A DNA stretch of 10,296 bases from a virus (lineage: Duplodnaviria > Heunggongvirae > Uroviricota > Caudoviricetes), in the IMG/VR virus record IMGVR_UViG_2548876863_000020, positions 1 through 10,296 of that record. One strand, written 5' to 3'. Made by a program: the position numbers and the translations under genes. Every line of letters starts with the position of its first letter. The stretch's first letter is position 1. Shown here piece after piece: positions 1 through 10,296 of the stretch. Below the pieces are notes generated by a model that saw only the letters and a program-made list of their open reading frames with translations, was not told the origin of the DNA and did no database searches.

Positions 1-201
1 TTACCCATTGGCGCGGCTTAAGAGCTTATTTTTGAATTCACAATGGTCACGATATAACCATCTTGCTCGCCCGTGGATAACTTTGGCTTTAGGCAGGTCT
101 CCGGACTTAATCCGGTCATAGATGAAGGTTTTACCGAAGCCAGTATCAGCCATGATGAATTTCAAATCAACCAGTGAATCAGGCTGTAGTTCGTGTTGCA
201 T
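1..201 (-). CDS. Excisionase-like / AlpA-family small DNA-binding protein (66 aa)
   Basis: Complete ORF, ATG at 201..199 with GGAGA 8 nt upstream, stop at window base 1. Motif IMADTGFGKTFIYDRIKSGDLPKAKVIHGRARW matches the winged-helix AlpA/Xis pattern (TG..K.TIY..I..G.FP..K.G.R..W). Sits at the distal end of the leftward operon where lambdoid phages carry xis next to int. Confidence 0.6.
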   Translation of the reverse strand: MQHELQPDSLVDLKFIMADTGFGKTFIYDRIKSGDLPKAKVIHGRARWLYRDHCEFKNKLLSRANG

Positions 202-4231: not shown

Positions 4232-4720
4232 TTATTTGATAAGAAGTGAAGGTTTCCCAACTTTGAGTTGAGCGCCGGGGATATTTATTCCTGCTTTTAG
4301 TTGGTGTTTGATTGCCAGTTTGTCGGCTTTAATTGTCGTTTCAAACTCAACGTATTCAGGAGGAAGGGCGCTTGAGTCGATGATTTCTACAGTTTCTGAC
4401 GGTTTGCGGATTGTTACTTGGTGAATACCTGCTCGAATCTTTTTCTTGCCAACCATTTCAAGCGATGACGCTATATACGCCATAATGCTGTCAATCTTAT
4501 TTTGAATTACTGCGGCTCGTTCATTCAGTGACTTTGCCTCGTCCTTGAGGCGTTCAGCATAACCAGATTCATTTTTAATAATGGCGAGAAGTTGCTCTAT
4601 TTTATCGGTAAATTCTCCTTCCATTCCTTCTATTGTGTCAGCAATCATCTCTGGCTCTAAATCTGAATCCATCAATTTTGCGTATTCATTGGCTATTTCA
4701 TATAGTTTGCTCACTGGCAA
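4232..4720 (-). CDS. Coiled-coil recombination-associated protein, possibly Sipho_Gp157-like (162 aa)
   Basis: ATG 4720..4718 with GGAGG 6 nt upstream; overlaps the recT 3' end by 23 nt. Size, predicted coiled coil and position next to recT fit Gp157-family proteins; assignment is from memory only. Confidence 0.4.
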   Translation of the reverse strand: MPVSKLYEIANEYAKLMDSDLEPEMIADTIEGMEGEFTDKIEQLLAIIKNESGYAERLKDEAKSLNERAAVIQNKIDSIMAYIASSLEMVGKKKIRAGIHQVTIRKPSETVEIIDSSALPPEYVEFETTIKADKLAIKHQLKAGINIPGAQLKVGKPSLLIK

Positions 4721-5600
4721 CCTCCAGTTTCGCTTTGCATTCTATGTAAATGGCTTGTACGTTCTGCTGCAATTTCATTCCAGATGTCAGGCGATATGCT
4801 TCTGCAAAATATCGCTTCAAATCATCCATGTTTTCTGCCTGAGCCATTTCATCACAAAGAAGTTGTGCTTTTTCCATTATTTCCTGCTGGCGTTTCCGTT
4901 CATCTTCGCGGATATCTTCCTCTGATTTGTGCGGCATAACTGGTTCCTGATGCATACCTTCATCTTCGTTAAGCAGGTGAATGGCATTATCCAGTCGCTG
5001 GGCTTTAGGCCAGTATTTGCTGGCGCGTTTAACTATGGTTTTACGCGCCATCTCTTCCCAGAATGTCTTCCACGGTCCATTCTTTGCCTTGCTCGTTGCT
5101 TCCACAGCTTTAATTTCTGCCAGACTCATTTCTTCAGTCAGGTAGTCACCATCTGCTGTTTTAACCGTGCAATAACCTCCAACAATAGAGCCTCGCTCAC
5201 CAAATGCGTTGTATTTGTGGGTTGGTGCTGAATCAAGGCCATTTGATTCATAGGTGTCGTTTGAGTACACCAGTTTGCATTGCCCCCACTTAATTGATCC
5301 TGTCGATTGCGCAAGATGAAGTAATCCCATGTAACTGATATCAAGGCACACCATGCCGTCGCGAGGAACCAGATAAGCAAGTTTGCTGGCCGGGTTTAAG
5401 GTGATGCCGATCGCCGCAACATTGATGATGGCGTTCTGTGCGCTGGTTGGATTTGCCAGTGCTGTTTTAGCCAGGTAATCGTTTTTCTGGAAATACTGAA
5501 TTGCAAACTGGCTTTCCTTAGCCCATGTCACCGTCTGTTCAGTCAATGCTCCGCAGAATAACTGCTCTTGCTGTTTAACGAATTCAACGATATTGCTCAT
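4698..5600 (-). CDS. recT: RecT-family single-strand annealing recombinase (300 aa)
   Basis: ATG 5600..5598 with GGAGA 6 nt upstream. Conserved segment NGPWKTFWEEMARKTIVKRASKYWP matches the RecT signature (compare Rac RecT NGPWVTHWEEMAKKTAIRRLFKYLP, recalled). Confidence 0.85.
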   Translation of the reverse strand: MSNIVEFVKQQEQLFCGALTEQTVTWAKESQFAIQYFQKNDYLAKTALANPTSAQNAIINVAAIGITLNPASKLAYLVPRDGMVCLDISYMGLLHLAQSTGSIKWGQCKLVYSNDTYESNGLDSAPTHKYNAFGERGSIVGGYCTVKTADGDYLTEEMSLAEIKAVEATSKAKNGPWKTFWEEMARKTIVKRASKYWPKAQRLDNAIHLLNEDEGMHQEPVMPHKSEEDIREDERKRQQEIMEKAQLLCDEMAQAENMDDLKRYFAEAYRLTSGMKLQQNVQAIYIECKAKLEVASEQTI

Positions 5601-5908
5601 GCAGCTTCTCCATAAATATGTCTGCGTTTGAATATTGCGAAGGCATATTCAGCCTTAACTCTTTCGGTTATTGCATCCCAGAACCATTCAGCGGCTTTTT
5701 CCTGATAGTTACAGTCATCATCTTCCAGCCAGTCGATAGCGTCCTTAGTGTGTTCATCTGGTTTATATGAGCGAAGCATTTCGCTTATTGGGTCGCAACG
5801 TTTGCAGAGGCGATCAACTTCACTGTTGATTCGCTCGTAATCTTCATCAGTAAAACTTGCGATTATTTGCGATATTTCACGCTTATCATTCAGAGTCAGA
5901 ATCATCAT
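5597..5908 (-). CDS. Hypothetical acidic protein (103 aa), immediately upstream of and coupled to recT
   Basis: ATG 5908..5906 with AGGAG upstream; ATGA overlap with the recT start. Occupies the slot that Gam/Abc-type RecBCD inhibitors take in lambda/P22; function inferred from position only. Confidence 0.6.
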   Translation of the reverse strand: MMILTLNDKREISQIIASFTDEDYERINSEVDRLCKRCDPISEMLRSYKPDEHTKDAIDWLEDDDCNYQEKAAEWFWDAITERVKAEYAFAIFKRRHIYGEAA

Positions 5909-5989
5909 CTTTCTCCTGTTCTTTGTGCTGATTGAGCATTTTGTTCATCTGACGAATGAATTCTTCGTCTGACCAGTTATCCGTAAAAC

Positions 5990-6160
5990 TCATGGACGGC
6001 CTTGTTGTTTCAAAATATCCCAAAGCTTTTCGAGCAAACTTTTCATTCTTGGTTGTTTAAAGTCTGCTCCGGTTAAAATATTTTTTCGTGAATGCTGTAC
6101 CGATAAAATCGGGTTGAAAGGGCGAACCGATGCCGCCCCTGCAATAGCGAACTGTTGCAT
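5990..6160 (-). CDS. cIII: cIII-like protein (56 aa)
   Basis: Internal ATG 6160..6158 of the 5990..6265 frame, with AAGGAG 7 nt upstream. MQQFAIAG... start and ...SLLEKLWDILKQQGRP end resemble lambda CIII (MQYAIAG...SLLERI...RLIDILNQPGVP, recalled). The 35 codons upstream in the track ORF lack an RBS and overlap a terminator. Confidence 0.5.
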   Translation of the reverse strand: MQQFAIAGAASVRPFNPILSVQHSRKNILTGADFKQPRMKSLLEKLWDILKQQGRP

Positions 6161-6220
6161 AGGATGCTCCTTCTGTTTGATTGCATAACGAAAACGCCTC
6201 GAGTGAAGCGTTATTGGTAT

Positions 6221-6250
6221 GCATATAAAAAGGCCCTCACACTGGAGGGC
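6221..6250 (-). terminator. Putative intrinsic terminator (minus strand) upstream of cIII
   Basis: Minus-strand RNA GCCCUC-CAGUGU-GAGGGC followed by CUUUUUAUAU. Confidence 0.5.
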
Positions 6251-6384
6251 AAAGAAGATTTCCAATAATCAGAACAAGTCGGCTCCTGTTTAGTTACGAG
6301 CGACATTGCTCCGTGTATTCACTCGTTGGAATGAATACACAGTGCAGTGTTTATTCTGTTGTTTATGCCAAAAATAAAGGCCGA

Positions 6385-7008
6385 CTATGCGGCTTCGGAA
6401 GGAAGTCCAATCATCTTATTCAAATCTTCTACCCGTAAAGCAGGAAGTGCTGTACTTGCTTTATCTGCTTCTTTTGGTAGCAATTCTTTGCTTTCAGGCC
6501 AAACTTCAATAAGTCGCTTAACTGTTGTGACTGAGTTCAAAGCAGCCCATACATTTGATTCGATATCCTTTTTCAAGGCTTCAAGGTTTTGTTGCAATGC
6601 GCAGATTTCATCAAACCTTTTTGTTATTTCGTGTTCTGCGTCAAACATGCATTTATCTTTAGTCGGAGTAGGGAGCAATATATCTTCTCCGTTGCCGTCT
6701 TTCCCATATGAATGCCATCCAACCCTTCTGCCAGATACAGTCAGATAAATCGAAGTAGAACGAACATCGCATGAGTAAAATGAACATCCCAGCTTTTCAA
6801 GTTCTTCACTTATAGCTACTAACTTGGATGATAACTGATCCACTTCCTCAGTTTTATTTTTACCGCCAAACGCAATAACTCTGGCGTCAAGTGCAAGCTG
6901 GTTCTTTAACTTTGTTACTTCTTCAAGTTCAGTGAAAACCCCAGACTTAATTAAAGCGTTACGAGCGATTTTCTCTTTCATTCTCGTAGTTAAGCGGATT
7001 GATGACAT
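6385..7008 (-). CDS. Hypothetical protein (207 aa)
   Basis: ORF-track frame 6385..7023 (TTG); ATG 7008..7006 preferred, with GAGAGGT upstream. Lies between ral-like and cIII-like. No family recognised. Confidence 0.65.
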   Translation of the reverse strand: MSSIRLTTRMKEKIARNALIKSGVFTELEEVTKLKNQLALDARVIAFGGKNKTEEVDQLSSKLVAISEELEKLGCSFYSCDVRSTSIYLTVSGRRVGWHSYGKDGNGEDILLPTPTKDKCMFDAEHEITKRFDEICALQQNLEALKKDIESNVWAALNSVTTVKRLIEVWPESKELLPKEADKASTALPALRVEDLNKMIGLPSEAA

Positions 7009-7021
7009 ATTAATACCTCTC

Positions 7022-7054
7022 AAATAAGAAAATAAAGGCCACCATCAGGCAGCC
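7022..7054 (-). terminator. Putative intrinsic terminator (minus strand) after ral-like gene
   Basis: Minus-strand RNA GGCUGCC-UGAU-GGUGGCC (7 bp including two G-U pairs) followed by UUUAUUUUCUUAUUU; the ral-like stop TGA is in the loop. Confidence 0.45.
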
Positions 7055-7245: not shown

Positions 7246-7323
7246 ACGGATAGTCCTGGTATTGTTCCATCACATCCTGCGGATGCTCTTCGAACTCTTC
7301 AAATTCTTCTTCCATATCTCACC

Positions 7324-7623
7324 TCAAATAAGTGGTTTGCTGCCTAATTTCATTTTCTGGCAACCAACACAAGTCACACCCATTTCACTGCGTGGCTTGC
7401 GGTAGTAAATACGGTTCTGTTTACGCTCGACTTCTTCTTTCTTCTTGCAGCAAAGGCTTCCTAGCGATGCTGCTTTGTCTGCTCTGACGCAACCAGAGAG
7501 CTTTAGCGCAATTTTTCGCGCCAGTCGCTGCTCTTGCATCGCCTGTTCACGTTGAGCCTGTCTGCGTGCTCTGCGGCGATTTCTGGCGTTATCGTCAGCC
7601 AGATATGTAATGACTACTGTCAT
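7324..7623 (-). CDS. N: Antitermination protein N (99 aa)
   Basis: ATG 7623..7621 with GGAGG 5 nt upstream (track ORF extends further with a non-ATG start). Arginine-rich motif NARNRRRARRQAQREQ near the N-terminus; C-terminus ERKQNRIYYRKPRSEMGVTCVGCQKMKLGSKPLI parallels lambda N (ERKNQRTWYSKPGERGITCSGRQKIKGKSIPLI, recalled). Confidence 0.85.
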   Translation of the reverse strand: MTVVITYLADDNARNRRRARRQAQREQAMQEQRLARKIALKLSGCVRADKAASLGSLCCKKKEEVERKQNRIYYRKPRSEMGVTCVGCQKMKLGSKPLI

Positions 7624-7678
7624 GTTGACCTCCGATGAAACAACTTTGGAATTGATAGTGATTGCAAAGTGGTTTCTG

Positions 7679-7707
7679 GCCCCTCGAACTGAGGGGCAGA
7701 AAGAGCA
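7679..7707 (-). promoter_or_regulatory. GC-rich hairpin with boxA-like flank in the N leader (function uncertain)
   Basis: Minus-strand RNA UGCUCUUUCU then GCCCCUC-AGUUC-GAGGGGC (7-bp perfect stem), about 55 nt upstream of the N start; no U tract after it, so not a classical terminator. Confidence 0.35.
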
Positions 7708-7936
7708 TCTCGCCACCTAATAGGTCGATGCTCGGATCGAGAGATTTAATTAACCTCGGTTTTGAAGTTATGCATTCACATAAATCCTCCTACCTCTTGT
7801 GCAGCTTTCTTGAATATGGTGGCGGCTGCATAACGCCTATGGAATTGACTTTGGCGGTGACGCGCCGGGTGCTTATCTTCCGGTTGCCGTCGTGCAGCTG
7901 CACTTCACGTCACCCCAAAGCCAACTACTCTTTGGT

Positions 7937-7978
7937 TCCCGCATTTCGGCGGGACAATCCCATCAATGTTAAAGAGCA
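7937..7978 (-). promoter_or_regulatory. nutL (boxA + boxB)
   Basis: Minus-strand RNA UGCUCUUUAAC (boxA-like; consensus CGCUCUUUA) followed after 14 nt by hairpin UCCCGC-CGAAAU-GCGGGA. The same boxA plus identical boxB occurs in the same transcript orientation downstream of cro. Confidence 0.7.
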
Positions 7979-8023
7979 TGCCAATCTGTTCCGTTTGGCT
8001 ACCAGCGTCCTGCTGATGGCTAA

Positions 8024-8052
8024 AGAATACTGTAGGTATTTTATTGTGTAAA
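8024..8052 (-). promoter_or_regulatory. pL candidate (-35 TTTACA, 17-nt spacer, -10 TATTCT on minus strand)
   Basis: Read on the minus strand: TTTACA (plus 8047-8052), spacer of 17, TATTCT (plus 8024-8029). Same -10 hexamer as the pR candidate; overlaps OL1, about 40 nt upstream of nutL. Confidence 0.45.
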
Positions 8053-8110
8053 TACCCAAGGTATTTATTTTTGGTGAAATAATGATAAGCAAATGAATAC
8101 AAAGGATATT
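8026..8110. promoter_or_regulatory. OL operator cluster (three 15-bp palindromic sites)
   Basis: AATAC-TGTAG-GTATT (8026-8040), AATAC-CCAAG-GTATT (8051-8065), AATAC-AAAGG-ATATT (8096-8110). Same AATAC-N5-GTATT motif as in the cI-cro intergenic region. Confidence 0.6.
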
Positions 8111-8197
8111 TATTTTTTTCGGTGTCTGCTTGTTCAGTGCTTTTTATGCGGGATATGTGAAGTGGATCCCGATAGCTATTGCTGCCGGGATTATGAG

Positions 8198-8566
8198 TTA
8201 GTCAGCGAAGGTTAAGACGAGAATTACCTTAATGATGTCTGCTACAACAGACACGGCCATAGATAAACCAAAGACGATCCAAGCCATAGAGATGTCTTCA
8301 CTACCATCGTATAGAGTTCCGTAATCACTGGTGTAAGGCGTAAATGTCGCGCCTTGATACAACAGGTATAAGCTTGAACCATAGAGGATAAATGCAGATA
8401 TCCCTTGTATTGCTATGATCACTAGAATCATGAAACGAGCTGATCTATGCGCCCAAGCCTGGCTTATTTTTTCTGATAGAGATTTCGCAATAAAAGCATG
8501 CGCTAAGCCGTAAATTGTCGAGATTGCCAACATCCCAAAAAAGCTTGCTATAGCGGTTCCAACCAT
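8198..8566 (-). CDS. Small integral membrane protein (about 122 aa, three predicted TM helices) co-transcribed downstream of cI
   Basis: ORF-track frame 8198..8587 (TTG overlapping the cI stop); ATG 8566..8564 with AAGGGG upstream is the more likely start. Three hydrophobic stretches of roughly 25 residues each. No terminator between it and cI. Confidence 0.65.
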   Translation of the reverse strand: MVGTAIASFFGMLAISTIYGLAHAFIAKSLSEKISQAWAHRSARFMILVIIAIQGISAFILYGSSLYLLYQGATFTPYTSDYGTLYDGSEDISMAWIVFGLSMAVSVVADIIKVILVLTFAD

Positions 8567-8583
8567 AAGCGCCCCTTGCGTGA

Positions 8584-9300
8584 TCAAACCAGCCTTAGTT
8601 TTGTCTCAATTGCAACGCCTATAATCTTGCAGTTTCCATTGATTGGCACGAGAGGCCATGCAGGGTTAAGTCCCTTGAGGTATTTATTTCCGCCGTCGAT
8701 TATCAGCTTCTTGAATGTTGCTTCGTTAGAGTCAGAAAGTTTTGCTATGACCAAGCTGCCGTTGATCGCCTCCCTTCCGGTATCGAAAAGAACGAATGTT
8801 CCCTCTGGAATGCTTAACCCAACCGGTGCCGTCATTGAATCACCTTCCACTTTAAGCCAGAACGCATTACCTTGAATATGCGCGTCAGACTCAAGCCAAA
8901 CATCTATGTCTTTAATGGTGTATGGTTCGCATGCTTCACACCACGAGCCAGCCTGGATACTGCTTAACACCGGATACCTCTTTCCTGCTCTGTATTCCCC
9001 TGCATACCTTACGTTGGCATCGCTCTTAAGGCTTTCTGCCTGTTCTGCAACCTTGGCAGCAATTGACTGGCTAAAATCAGCAATTGAGACTTGCAACAGT
9101 CGTGCAAAACCAGATGCAACCTCAACGTTTAGCGCGTTTCTGCCATTAAGATAATGCCCTACCGCTCCTTGGGTGATACCCAGTTCATCAGCGATTGAGT
9201 ATTGGGTTATTCCCAATTCTTTCTTTTTTGACTCATACAAAGCCTTAAGCCGCTTAGCGTCTTCGAGCTGTTCTGTCGTCAGTGATTTTTTATTTTCCAT
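8584..9300 (-). CDS. cI: CI-type prophage repressor (238 aa), HTH plus S24 autopeptidase domain
   Basis: Strong resemblance to lambda CI as recalled (LTTEQLEDAKRLKALYESKKKELG...). Ala-Gly cleavage site in IQAGSW, catalytic Ser in EGDSMTAP, Lys in TFKKLI. Divergent from cro with operators between them. Confidence 0.95.
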   Translation of the reverse strand: MENKKSLTTEQLEDAKRLKALYESKKKELGITQYSIADELGITQGAVGHYLNGRNALNVEVASGFARLLQVSIADFSQSIAAKVAEQAESLKSDANVRYAGEYRAGKRYPVLSSIQAGSWCEACEPYTIKDIDVWLESDAHIQGNAFWLKVEGDSMTAPVGLSIPEGTFVLFDTGREAINGSLVIAKLSDSNEATFKKLIIDGGNKYLKGLNPAWPLVPINGNCKIIGVAIETKLRLV

Positions 9301-9306
9301 AGCTTA

Positions 9307-9335
9307 ATTCTAATAGCTAAGGTACTTAAACTAAA
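9307..9335 (-). promoter_or_regulatory. pRM candidate, leaderless or near-leaderless cI transcript
   Basis: On the minus strand, TAGAAT (plus 9307-9312) ends 6 nt before the cI ATG and there is no Shine-Dalgarno, as for lambda pRM; the -35 is weak (TTTAGT). Confidence 0.35.
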
Positions 9336-9375
9336 AATACCCTAAGTATTGATTGCTTTGAATACCTGTAGTATT
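9312..9375. promoter_or_regulatory. OR operator cluster (OR3, OR2, OR1)
   Basis: AATAG-CTAAG-GTACT (9312-9326), AATAC-CCTAA-GTATT (9336-9350), AATAC-CTGTA-GTATT (9361-9375); centre-to-centre spacing 24-25 bp. Confidence 0.65.
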
Positions 9376-9377
9376 CT
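9349..9377 (+). promoter_or_regulatory. pR candidate (-35 TTGATT, 17-nt spacer, -10 TATTCT)
   Basis: -35 at 9349-9354 overlaps OR2; -10 at 9372-9377 overlaps OR1; about 30 nt upstream of the cro start. Confidence 0.5.
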
Positions 9378-9406
9378 TTGTTCATGGTTAATAACGGAGA
9401 GTGCAT

Positions 9407-9601
9407 ATGATTCGAATGACACTTGCCGATTACGCCAAAATCCATGGACAGGCTAAAGCAGCCAGTGACTTTGGTGTAATCCAGTGCGCTATCAGCAAGG
9501 CCATTCTGGCAGGCCGTAACATTATGGTTACGGTAAAGCCTGATGGCAGTGTGATTGGAGAGGAAGTTCGTCCTTTCCCAAGCAACAAGAAAAACAAATA
9601 G
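9407..9601 (+). CDS. cro: Cro repressor (64 aa)
   Basis: ATG 9407 with GGAGA 6 nt upstream (track ORF begins at GTG 9401). Resembles lambda Cro as recalled (ITLKDYA..FGQTK.A.DLGV.QSAINKAI.AGR...DGSV..EEV.PFPSNKK). Confidence 0.9.
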
Positions 9602-9607
9602 TAACAC

Positions 9608-9652
9608 CGCTCTTTAACAGTCATGGTCCTCATTCCCGCCGAAATGCGGGAA
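9608..9652 (+). promoter_or_regulatory. nutR (boxA + boxB)
   Basis: CGCTCTTTA at 9608-9616 (boxA consensus), then hairpin TTCCCGC-CGAAAT-GCGGGAA at 9633-9652, identical to the nutL boxB, immediately after the cro stop. Confidence 0.75.
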
Positions 9653-9658
9653 TACAAC

Positions 9659-9690
9659 GCGCACAAGTTGATGCGCATAACTTCTTATTA
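9659..9690 (+). terminator. tR1 candidate
   Basis: Hairpin GCGCA-caagttga-TGCGC followed by a moderately U-rich AUAACUUCUUAUU, between nutR and cII. Weak as an intrinsic terminator; could be Rho-dependent as in lambda. Confidence 0.3.
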
Positions 9691-9709
9691 GTTAAGGAAA
9701 TACTTACAT

Positions 9710-9988
9710 ATGCAACTTACAAGTACTCGCAAGAAAGCGAATGCAATTACAAGCAACATCCTGAATCGAATTGCTGTACGTGGTCAGCGAAAGGTTGCCG
9801 ACGCGTTAGGGATTAATGAATCGCAAATTTCGCGATGGAAAGACAGCTTCATCCCAAAAATGGGAATGCTTCTGGCTGTTCTTGAATGGGGTGTTGAAGA
9901 CGAGGAGTTGGCGGAACTGGCTAAGAAAGTAGCCAGAATGCTGACAAAAGAAAAAGCCCCGAAGAACGGCGAATTCTTCGAGGCCTGA
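9710..9988 (+). CDS. cII: CII transcriptional activator (92 aa)
   Basis: ATG 9710 with AAGGAAA upstream. Resembles lambda CII as recalled (KSQISRWK....[14 protein letters not shown]...A.LA..VA..LT). Confidence 0.9.
9944..9980 (-). terminator. oop-like antisense terminator inside the cII 3' end
   Basis: Minus-strand RNA CGAAGAA-UUCGCCG-UUCUUCG (7-bp stem) followed by GGGCUUUUUCUUUUG; position matches the lambda oop RNA terminator. Confidence 0.35.
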
Positions 9989-10022
9989 TGTAGAAAGACT
10001 GGATCAATCCACAGGAGTAATT

Positions 10023-10169
10023 ATGACAAAACAACTCAGTCCTTACCAGGACAAAATTCACAAACACATACTACGTGATCGCTTCCTGTCCAGCTTCAAG
10101 CAGCCTGGTCGATTCCGGGCTGAGTTGGAAAAAGTGAAGCTGATGCAGAAGGAGAAAGGTCATGAGTAA
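10023..10169 (+). CDS. Small hypothetical protein (48 aa), below the ORF-track cutoff
   Basis: ATG 10023 with AGGAG 6 nt upstream; translates [48 protein letters not shown]; stop 10167-10169. Confidence 0.4.
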
Positions 10170-10296
10170 TCTTGCAACCGTAACACATTTAAGGCCTTCA
10201 CAACGGCCTGTGGAGCGTCGTGTGGCAGAAGTTGAAGATGGTTATACTGAACCGCCCCGGGAATCCTGGAGACTAAACTCCCTGAGAAAGAGGTAA
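10162..10296 (+). CDS. Small ORF (44 aa) with an N-terminus reminiscent of replication protein O; ends at the window edge
   Basis: ATG 10162 with AGGAG upstream, overlapping the previous stop by 8 nt. [10 protein letters not shown]...[11 protein letters not shown] parallels lambda O MTNTAKILNF...RNVADLDDGYA (recalled); stop TAA at 10294-10296. Every forward frame has a stop in the last 60 nt. Confidence 0.4.

Follow-up and report, generated by a model that had tools for sequence, protein, structure and literature searches.

IS629 insertion in the O-type replication initiator gene of a lambdoid Escherichia coli prophage, beside an intact DUF2740 gene

The locus described here has its closest counterparts in the early-right operons of the lambdoid phages and in the IS629 insertions known from E. 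coli and Shigella prophages. In lambda itself the replication initiator gene O comes directly after cII, and the initial annotation of the present DNA expected the same order here; that expectation holds for lambda but fails for P22, HK620 and many lambdoid phages, in which an extra small ORF is present (PMC3349717). In P22 the small gene is orf48, followed by gene 18, and in HK620 it is hkaW, followed by O; according to Hayes et al., orf48 of P22 is naturally absent from lambda (PMC3349717). IS629, of which IS1203 and IS3411 are isoforms, has been described in E. coli O157:H7, where it lies mostly in prophages (62% of sites) and drives prophage diversification (PMC3271280).

Here we analyse a stretch of 10,296 nucleotides, hereafter the window, whose right end carries two short overlapping ORFs where a replication initiator had been expected (Table 1). 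Overall, we are highly confident that the window records an O-type initiator gene split by IS629 in a lambdoid prophage, together with a genuine DUF2740 gene.

Table 1. Positions of the features discussed in the text, in window coordinates
Feature	Position	Strand	Remarks
cI-type repressor	8584-9300	-	HTH_3 and Peptidase_S24 domains
cro	9401-9601		context gene, confirmed
cII	9710-9988		directly upstream of ORF1; Pfam Phage_CII, E 1.8e-42
Shine-Dalgarno AGGAG of ORF1	10013-10017	+	5-nt spacer to ATG; read from sequence
ORF1	10023-10169	+	ATG 10023, TAA 10167-10169; 48 aa
Shine-Dalgarno AGGAG of replication gene	10150-10154	+	7 nt before ATG 10162; inside ORF1 3' end; read from sequence
ORF2	10162-10296	+	ATG 10162, TAA 10294-10296, the last codon of the window; 44 aa
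Initiator 5' remnant	10162-10247	+	86 nt: codons 1-28 and two bases of codon 29
Target site ATAC	10244-10247	.	duplicated beyond the IS in related assemblies
IS629 left end (IS3 family)	10248-10296	+	left inverted repeat 10248-10272, then leader to the transposase ribosome-binding site

The early operon and its DUF2740 gene

What the window covers is the early arm of a lambdoid prophage, related to P22 and HK620, that lies in E. coli between dsdC and yfdC/mlaA. It is these flanking genes, together with a torI-like excisionase gene at 1-201, that assign the element to E. coli, and we take the location to be the argW site, used by KplE1. The first base of the window belongs to the stop codon of that 66-aa ORF (1-201, minus strand), and its last three bases are the TAA already reported in the initial annotation, whose suggestion that the window had been cut at gene boundaries, with the 44-aa ORF as an annotated gene, fits the gene calls in public assemblies. 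A complete genome nearly identical to the window names the product of this ORF TorI, a response regulator inhibitor and the excisionase of KplE1; a Pfam search returned no match for it.

Because a cI-type repressor, cro and cII lie upstream, the setting is that of a lambdoid early-right operon. Its order is cro, cII, DUF2740 gene, replication gene, and early transcription would run rightward from cro through cII and the 48-aa DUF2740 gene into the replication initiator, the homologue of lambda O and P22 gene 18. Since the window contains 126 ORFs of at least 30 aa, ORF length alone is no evidence for a gene, and it is homology that lifts ORF1 and ORF2 above chance.

Several other features of this arm deserve a brief description. 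On the minus strand, a strong terminator-like hairpin with a 14-bp stem and a T run lies over the 3' end of cII (9954-9986), and a leftward promoter lies over the start of ORF1 (about 10020-10048), its -10 element CATAAT including the complement of the ORF1 ATG; the P22 record annotates a matching leftward terminator and promoter with the remark 'homology with phage lambda'. Together the hairpin and the promoter look like an oop-type antisense RNA of approximately 70 nt, and a search of the whole window against Rfam at gathering thresholds returned no match, this oop-like element included. In the early-left region, adjoining ral, lies a gene for an Nmad5-family protein (nucleotide modification associated domain 5, E 1.8e-69; 6385-7023, minus strand), in which two synonymous changes, at 6481 and 6484, set the window apart from all relatives read. 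The two ORFs that flank the immunity region, 7324-7716 and 8198-8587 (-), gave no match in a Pfam search. By eye, a 130-aa ORF beside the immunity region has an arginine-rich stretch (NARNRRRARRQAQREQ) and sits at the position of an N-type antiterminator, and a 129-aa ORF just downstream of cI resembles a membrane protein.

The initial annotation had drawn attention to two overlapping ORFs, one of 48 aa with a strong ribosome-binding site and one of 44 aa, and we find both as described. It left open whether these might be genuine small proteins, and on this point the two ORFs part company, for the proposal is borne out for ORF1 and fails for ORF2. ORF1 matches Pfam DUF2740 (PF10872) over profile positions 1-43 of 43, at E 8.9e-29 and 99.4 bits against a gathering cut-off of 27, and it is therefore a full-length member of that family. 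Its product shares 86% amino acid identity with P22 Orf48, and the same gene in E. coli prophages bears the RefSeq name 'DUF2740 family protein'. P22 orf48, HK620 hkaW and HK022 gp53 are like ORF1 in their 48-aa length, in their slot between cII/oop and the initiator and in an 8-nt overlap; apart from the lack of a DUF2740 gene in lambda itself, we see no notable difference between ORF1 and the P22 orf48 family. ORF1 is thus an intact, known and conserved small phage gene, the homologue of P22 orf48 and HK620 hkaW. Phages of this type would be expected to carry it, and finding it here does not point to damage.

The overlap itself merits attention. In the window, as in P22 and HK620, the DUF2740 gene occupies the slot between cII and the initiator and overlaps the initiator start; the overlap of ORF1 with the replication gene is the 8-nt ATGAGTAA, identical in P22 and HK620, so that the same 8 nt (ATGAGTAA) are maintained across three different initiator alleles. 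Because the overlap is conserved, translational coupling of the DUF2740 gene to the initiator suggests itself, and we infer that the most likely role of the DUF2740 protein would be such coupling to, or an accessory part in, the expression of the initiator. Codon differences between ORF1 and P22 orf48 comprise 6 synonymous and 7 non-synonymous changes, a sample too small to show selection. As a side observation, the PHROG family phrog_1913 and the RefSeq records of HK620 and HK630 label the 48-aa ORF 'tail protein'; since the gene sits between cII and the replication gene, that label is doubtful and looks like a propagated annotation error.

IS629 in codon 29 of the initiator gene

The second ORF opens as a replication initiator and does not continue as one. 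The 86 nt from 10162 to 10247 are identical to the start of an intact 861-nt gene (L001:3463-4323), and divergence is complete exactly from 10248. The product of the intact gene, found in other E. coli prophages, is WP_000067062.1, a 286-aa 'replication protein' that matches Pfam Phage_rep_O (PF04492) over residues 20-114 (E 1.1e-37) and the N-terminal region of lambda O (49% identity over 161 aa, E 2e-42). This uninterrupted allele is like lambda O and P22 gene 18 in its profile match, in having iterons within the gene and in its position downstream of cII; it differs from lambda O in its C-terminal half, and its downstream partner gene encodes a 626-aa Toprim/DnaB-like primase-helicase instead of lambda P. 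The iterons of the intact allele are four copies of TGTCAC-N7-GTGACA at gene nt 355-440 (L001 3817-3902), spaced 20-24 bp apart, and they lie downstream of the insertion point and outside the window. When positions 9700-10296 were compared by megablast with complete E. coli genomes, 36 genomes matched query positions 1-548, with up to 100% identity; all 36 are annotated with CII, DUF2740 and 'replication protein' in this region, and none matches past query position 548, which is window position 10247.

Residues 1-29 of ORF2 can be aligned with the beginnings of lambda O and P22 gp18, and they weakly match the first 30 or so positions of three PHROG 'replication initiation O-like' profiles (E 9e-4 to 6e-3). 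The O-like N-terminus noted in the initial annotation is therefore real, and it is short: taken alone, the 44-aa ORF gave no match in a Pfam search, PF04492 included, and the break after residue 29 falls at about position 10 of the 95-position profile, so that ORF2 lacks a complete N-terminal origin-binding domain. Compared with the lambda O family, the window keeps only 29 codons, too few for origin binding.

The break lies between 10247 and 10248, and the final 49 nt of the window are the left end of IS629. These 49 nt are highly repeated in E. coli: of 5,426 complete genomes 3,484 contain them, at more than 22,000 places in all, both chromosomal and plasmid-borne. There they interrupt unrelated genes such as treR and stand immediately before an 'IS3 family transposase, programmed frameshift'; RefSeq annotates that programmed frameshift at identical IS ends, a -1 shift joining two overlapping transposase ORFs being characteristic of such elements. 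The window carries the left inverted repeat only, with the transposase ORFs outside it; the ATG of IS629 orfA would be expected 6 nt beyond its end. In a related assembly, L005, the full element (10087-11396) is 1310 bp long, runs from TGAACCGCCCCGG to CCGGGGCGGTTCA with TG...CA ends and has inverted repeats matching at 22 of 25 positions. Its orfA matches HTH_Tnp_1 and its orfB matches rve and HTH_21 in Pfam, as in IS3-family elements. Over all 1310 nt it shares 99.5% identity with the IS629 annotated in phage JLK-2012, and 95.5% with both IS1203v and the IS629 of VT2-Sakai. In length, ends, orfA/orfB and a 4-bp duplication the element is like the IS629 copies of E. coli and Shigella prophages, and it shares its prophage location with most copies in O157:H7 (PMC3271280); what distinguishes it from known IS629 insertions is its place in codon 29 of a replication initiator gene, with only its first 49 nt inside the window.

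Related assemblies allowed us to follow the gene beyond the window, and sequence across the IS was read in four of them, L003, L005, L013 and L004. In L005 and L003 the DNA reads GGTTATAC, then the IS, then ATACCCGTC, where the intact gene reads GGTTATACCCGTC; in L013, nt 83-86 of the replication gene are present on both sides of the IS. In all three, ATAC flanks the element on both sides and the rest of the gene follows. Target-site duplications of IS629 are usually 3-4 bp. When the IS and one ATAC are removed from L005, an open frame of 286 aa is restored that agrees with the intact allele in 852 of its 861 nt, and the order after the 44-aa ORF in that assembly is orfA, orfB, a 274-aa Phage_rep_O fragment and the 626-aa Toprim/DnaB-like protein. 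What we observe, then, is the junction and an element identifiable as IS629 and, in related assemblies, the duplicated target and the restored 286-aa frame. The event behind them is the transposition of a 1310-bp IS629 into initiator codon 29, with duplication of the target ATAC.

These observations bear on several other explanations. The initial annotation had proposed that the O homologue was either truncated or frameshifted. Truncation is what we find, by IS629 between 10247 and 10248; a frameshift or nonsense pseudogene, with the remainder of the gene directly after the window in another frame, would also explain why ORF2 ends early after 29 O-like residues, and another frame of the last 49 nt does give 12 residues that look vaguely O-like by eye. 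However, alignment to the intact O-type gene, the check suggested for this very purpose, confirms the homology to O and shows no change of frame, for similarity stops abruptly at 10247 and the next 49 nt are an IS629 end present at thousands of unrelated loci. We give a frameshift practically no credence, and a frameshift or point mutation in O was rejected because of the abrupt junction and the IS629 identity.

A different proposal takes both ORFs as genuine small protein genes, the 44-aa product being a selected, functional peptide such as a short O-derived regulator. ORF2 does have a good ribosome-binding site and an ATG, its translation would be coupled to that of ORF1, and 14 contigs have it as a called gene. 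Nonetheless, it consists of 29 residues from the initiator followed by 15 residues and a TAA read from the IS629 end, so that IS629 supplies the stop codon and the C-terminal third; it belongs to no Pfam family; in all carriers with both flanks read the insertion lies at the same nucleotide, as a single inherited event would have it; and 36 complete genomes with this allele carry the intact 286-aa gene instead. We regard a functional 44-aa peptide as very improbable, and ORF2 as a fusion artefact, not a gene in its own right.

The junction might also be an artefact of assembly, a phage contig falsely joined to a repeated IS. IS629 is multicopy, and several draft contigs (L006 and L007) end inside it. 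Yet the same junction occurs in megabase-scale contigs from four assemblies, three of which also show the corresponding right junction with a target duplication of 4 bp, and a false join was rejected because that duplication recurs in several long contigs; we judge it highly improbable.

Carrier assemblies and the history of the prophage

The 44-aa product has exact counterparts on 14 contigs, from public assemblies in which it is a called gene. The insertion site in codon 29 was found in none of 5,426 complete RefSeq E. coli genomes, and an exact-match scan for the 49-nt junction in GTDB species-representative genomes likewise found none. Compared with the window, the assemblies read differ by 1-3 substitutions and by different extra IS elements, and none is identical over the full length. 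In L003 there is an extra IS4 near window position 7050 and an IS21 in the primase-helicase gene, and in L005 an extra IS1 near window position 5945. L013 (GCA_014105715.1) has a second IS629-like copy, 93.8% identical and of a different subtype, in codon 4 of the DUF2740 gene (window-equivalent 10031-10034), 213 bp upstream of the shared IS629 insertion, where the overlap of the flank matches suggests a 4-bp duplication. Since the same insertion and target duplication are present in L003, L005 and L013, the insertion has been inherited within one lineage, and because sister strains carry further IS insertions, the prophage is decaying in that lineage, eroded by insertion sequences.

The downstream check proposed in the initial annotation can be answered from the same assemblies. 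An unrelated full-length replication gene was not found beyond the 44-aa ORF; IS629 comes next in all four assemblies, and after it three of them have the remaining part of the interrupted gene and the fourth a deletion. This fourth assembly, L004, raises the one variant of our account that carries appreciable weight, namely that in the window's own case the IS629 insertion was followed by an IS-mediated deletion that took away the gene's 3' part along with much of the prophage. In L004 the right end of the IS abuts the prophage end that carries the mnt, tailspike, acyltransferase and integrase genes, and ATAC is missing there, which makes this an IS-adjacent deletion. Likewise, the complete genome of E. 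coli OkiPb01684 (L010), from bovine faeces, has an IS629-associated deletion and inversion in the same prophage, with window positions from about 7300 to 10247 lost beside the IS629 copy and the lysis region inverted. Against this stand L003, L005 and L013, which retain the simple insertion with its target duplication, and an ISEc8 (IS66 family) at window position 1146/1147, which accompanies the deleted form in L004 and L010 and is absent from the window. As the window ends 49 bases into the IS, its right flank is known from related assemblies only, and we consider a deletion in the window's own prophage possible, if doubtful. A simple insertion, rather than a deletion, would predict that beyond 10296 IS629 gives way to ATACCCGTCTTGC, the IS ending 1261 nt past the window end and being followed by ATACCCGTCTTGCAAATGCC.

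Erosion is not the only kind of change seen at this position. In L016 (GCA_039774465.1), positions 4644-6986, a different replication module, itself intact, follows the same left arm and immunity region; it comprises a 53-aa ORF that does not match DUF2740, a Phage_rep_O protein of 273 aa and a DnaB-type helicase. Modules have thus been exchanged to the right of cII.

Expected replication defect and wider meaning

Because the break lies only about 10 positions into the 95-position origin-binding domain profile, neither fragment of the initiator should bind iterons, and the insertion would be expected to abolish initiator function. In addition, the origin iterons and the primase-helicase gene would both be separated from the early promoter by the 1.3 kb of the IS. 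In L005 an ORF reads from the right end of the IS into the 3' fragment of the gene, with no ATG, GTG or TTG start before the native Met66. The cut domain, the lack of a canonical start before Met66 and the 1.3-kb spacing together lead us to expect a replication-defective prophage, one that should be unable to replicate on induction. In this context, the prophage should be scored as replication-defective, and the label of the 44-aa 'gene' should identify it as the 5' piece of a replication gene disrupted by an IS, in place of 'hypothetical protein'.

More adventurous readings can be formulated, and we think them unlikely. The insertion might be retained as a 'lock' that stops a useful prophage from replicating and killing its host, or it might be reversible through IEE-promoted excision of IS629; separately, the DUF2740 peptide might act as a translationally coupled regulator of initiator synthesis. 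In L004, the assembly where that end of the prophage was read, an O-antigen acyltransferase gene adjoins the integrase gene. IEE-promoted excision of IS629 restores interrupted genes in STEC, as reported for lacZ (PMC9397093).

All components of the preferred account, an initiator gene split by IS629 beside an intact DUF2740 gene, belong to known families, and inactivation of a prophage gene by IS629 is a well-known kind of event; the specific insertion site, absent from complete RefSeq genomes, is a lineage detail only. The erosion of this prophage by insertion sequences agrees with the published observations on IS629 in O157:H7 (PMC3271280). The case is thus an example of the erosion of prophages by IS629 in some lineages of E. 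coli, and the shared insertion could serve as a marker of the lineage that carries it.
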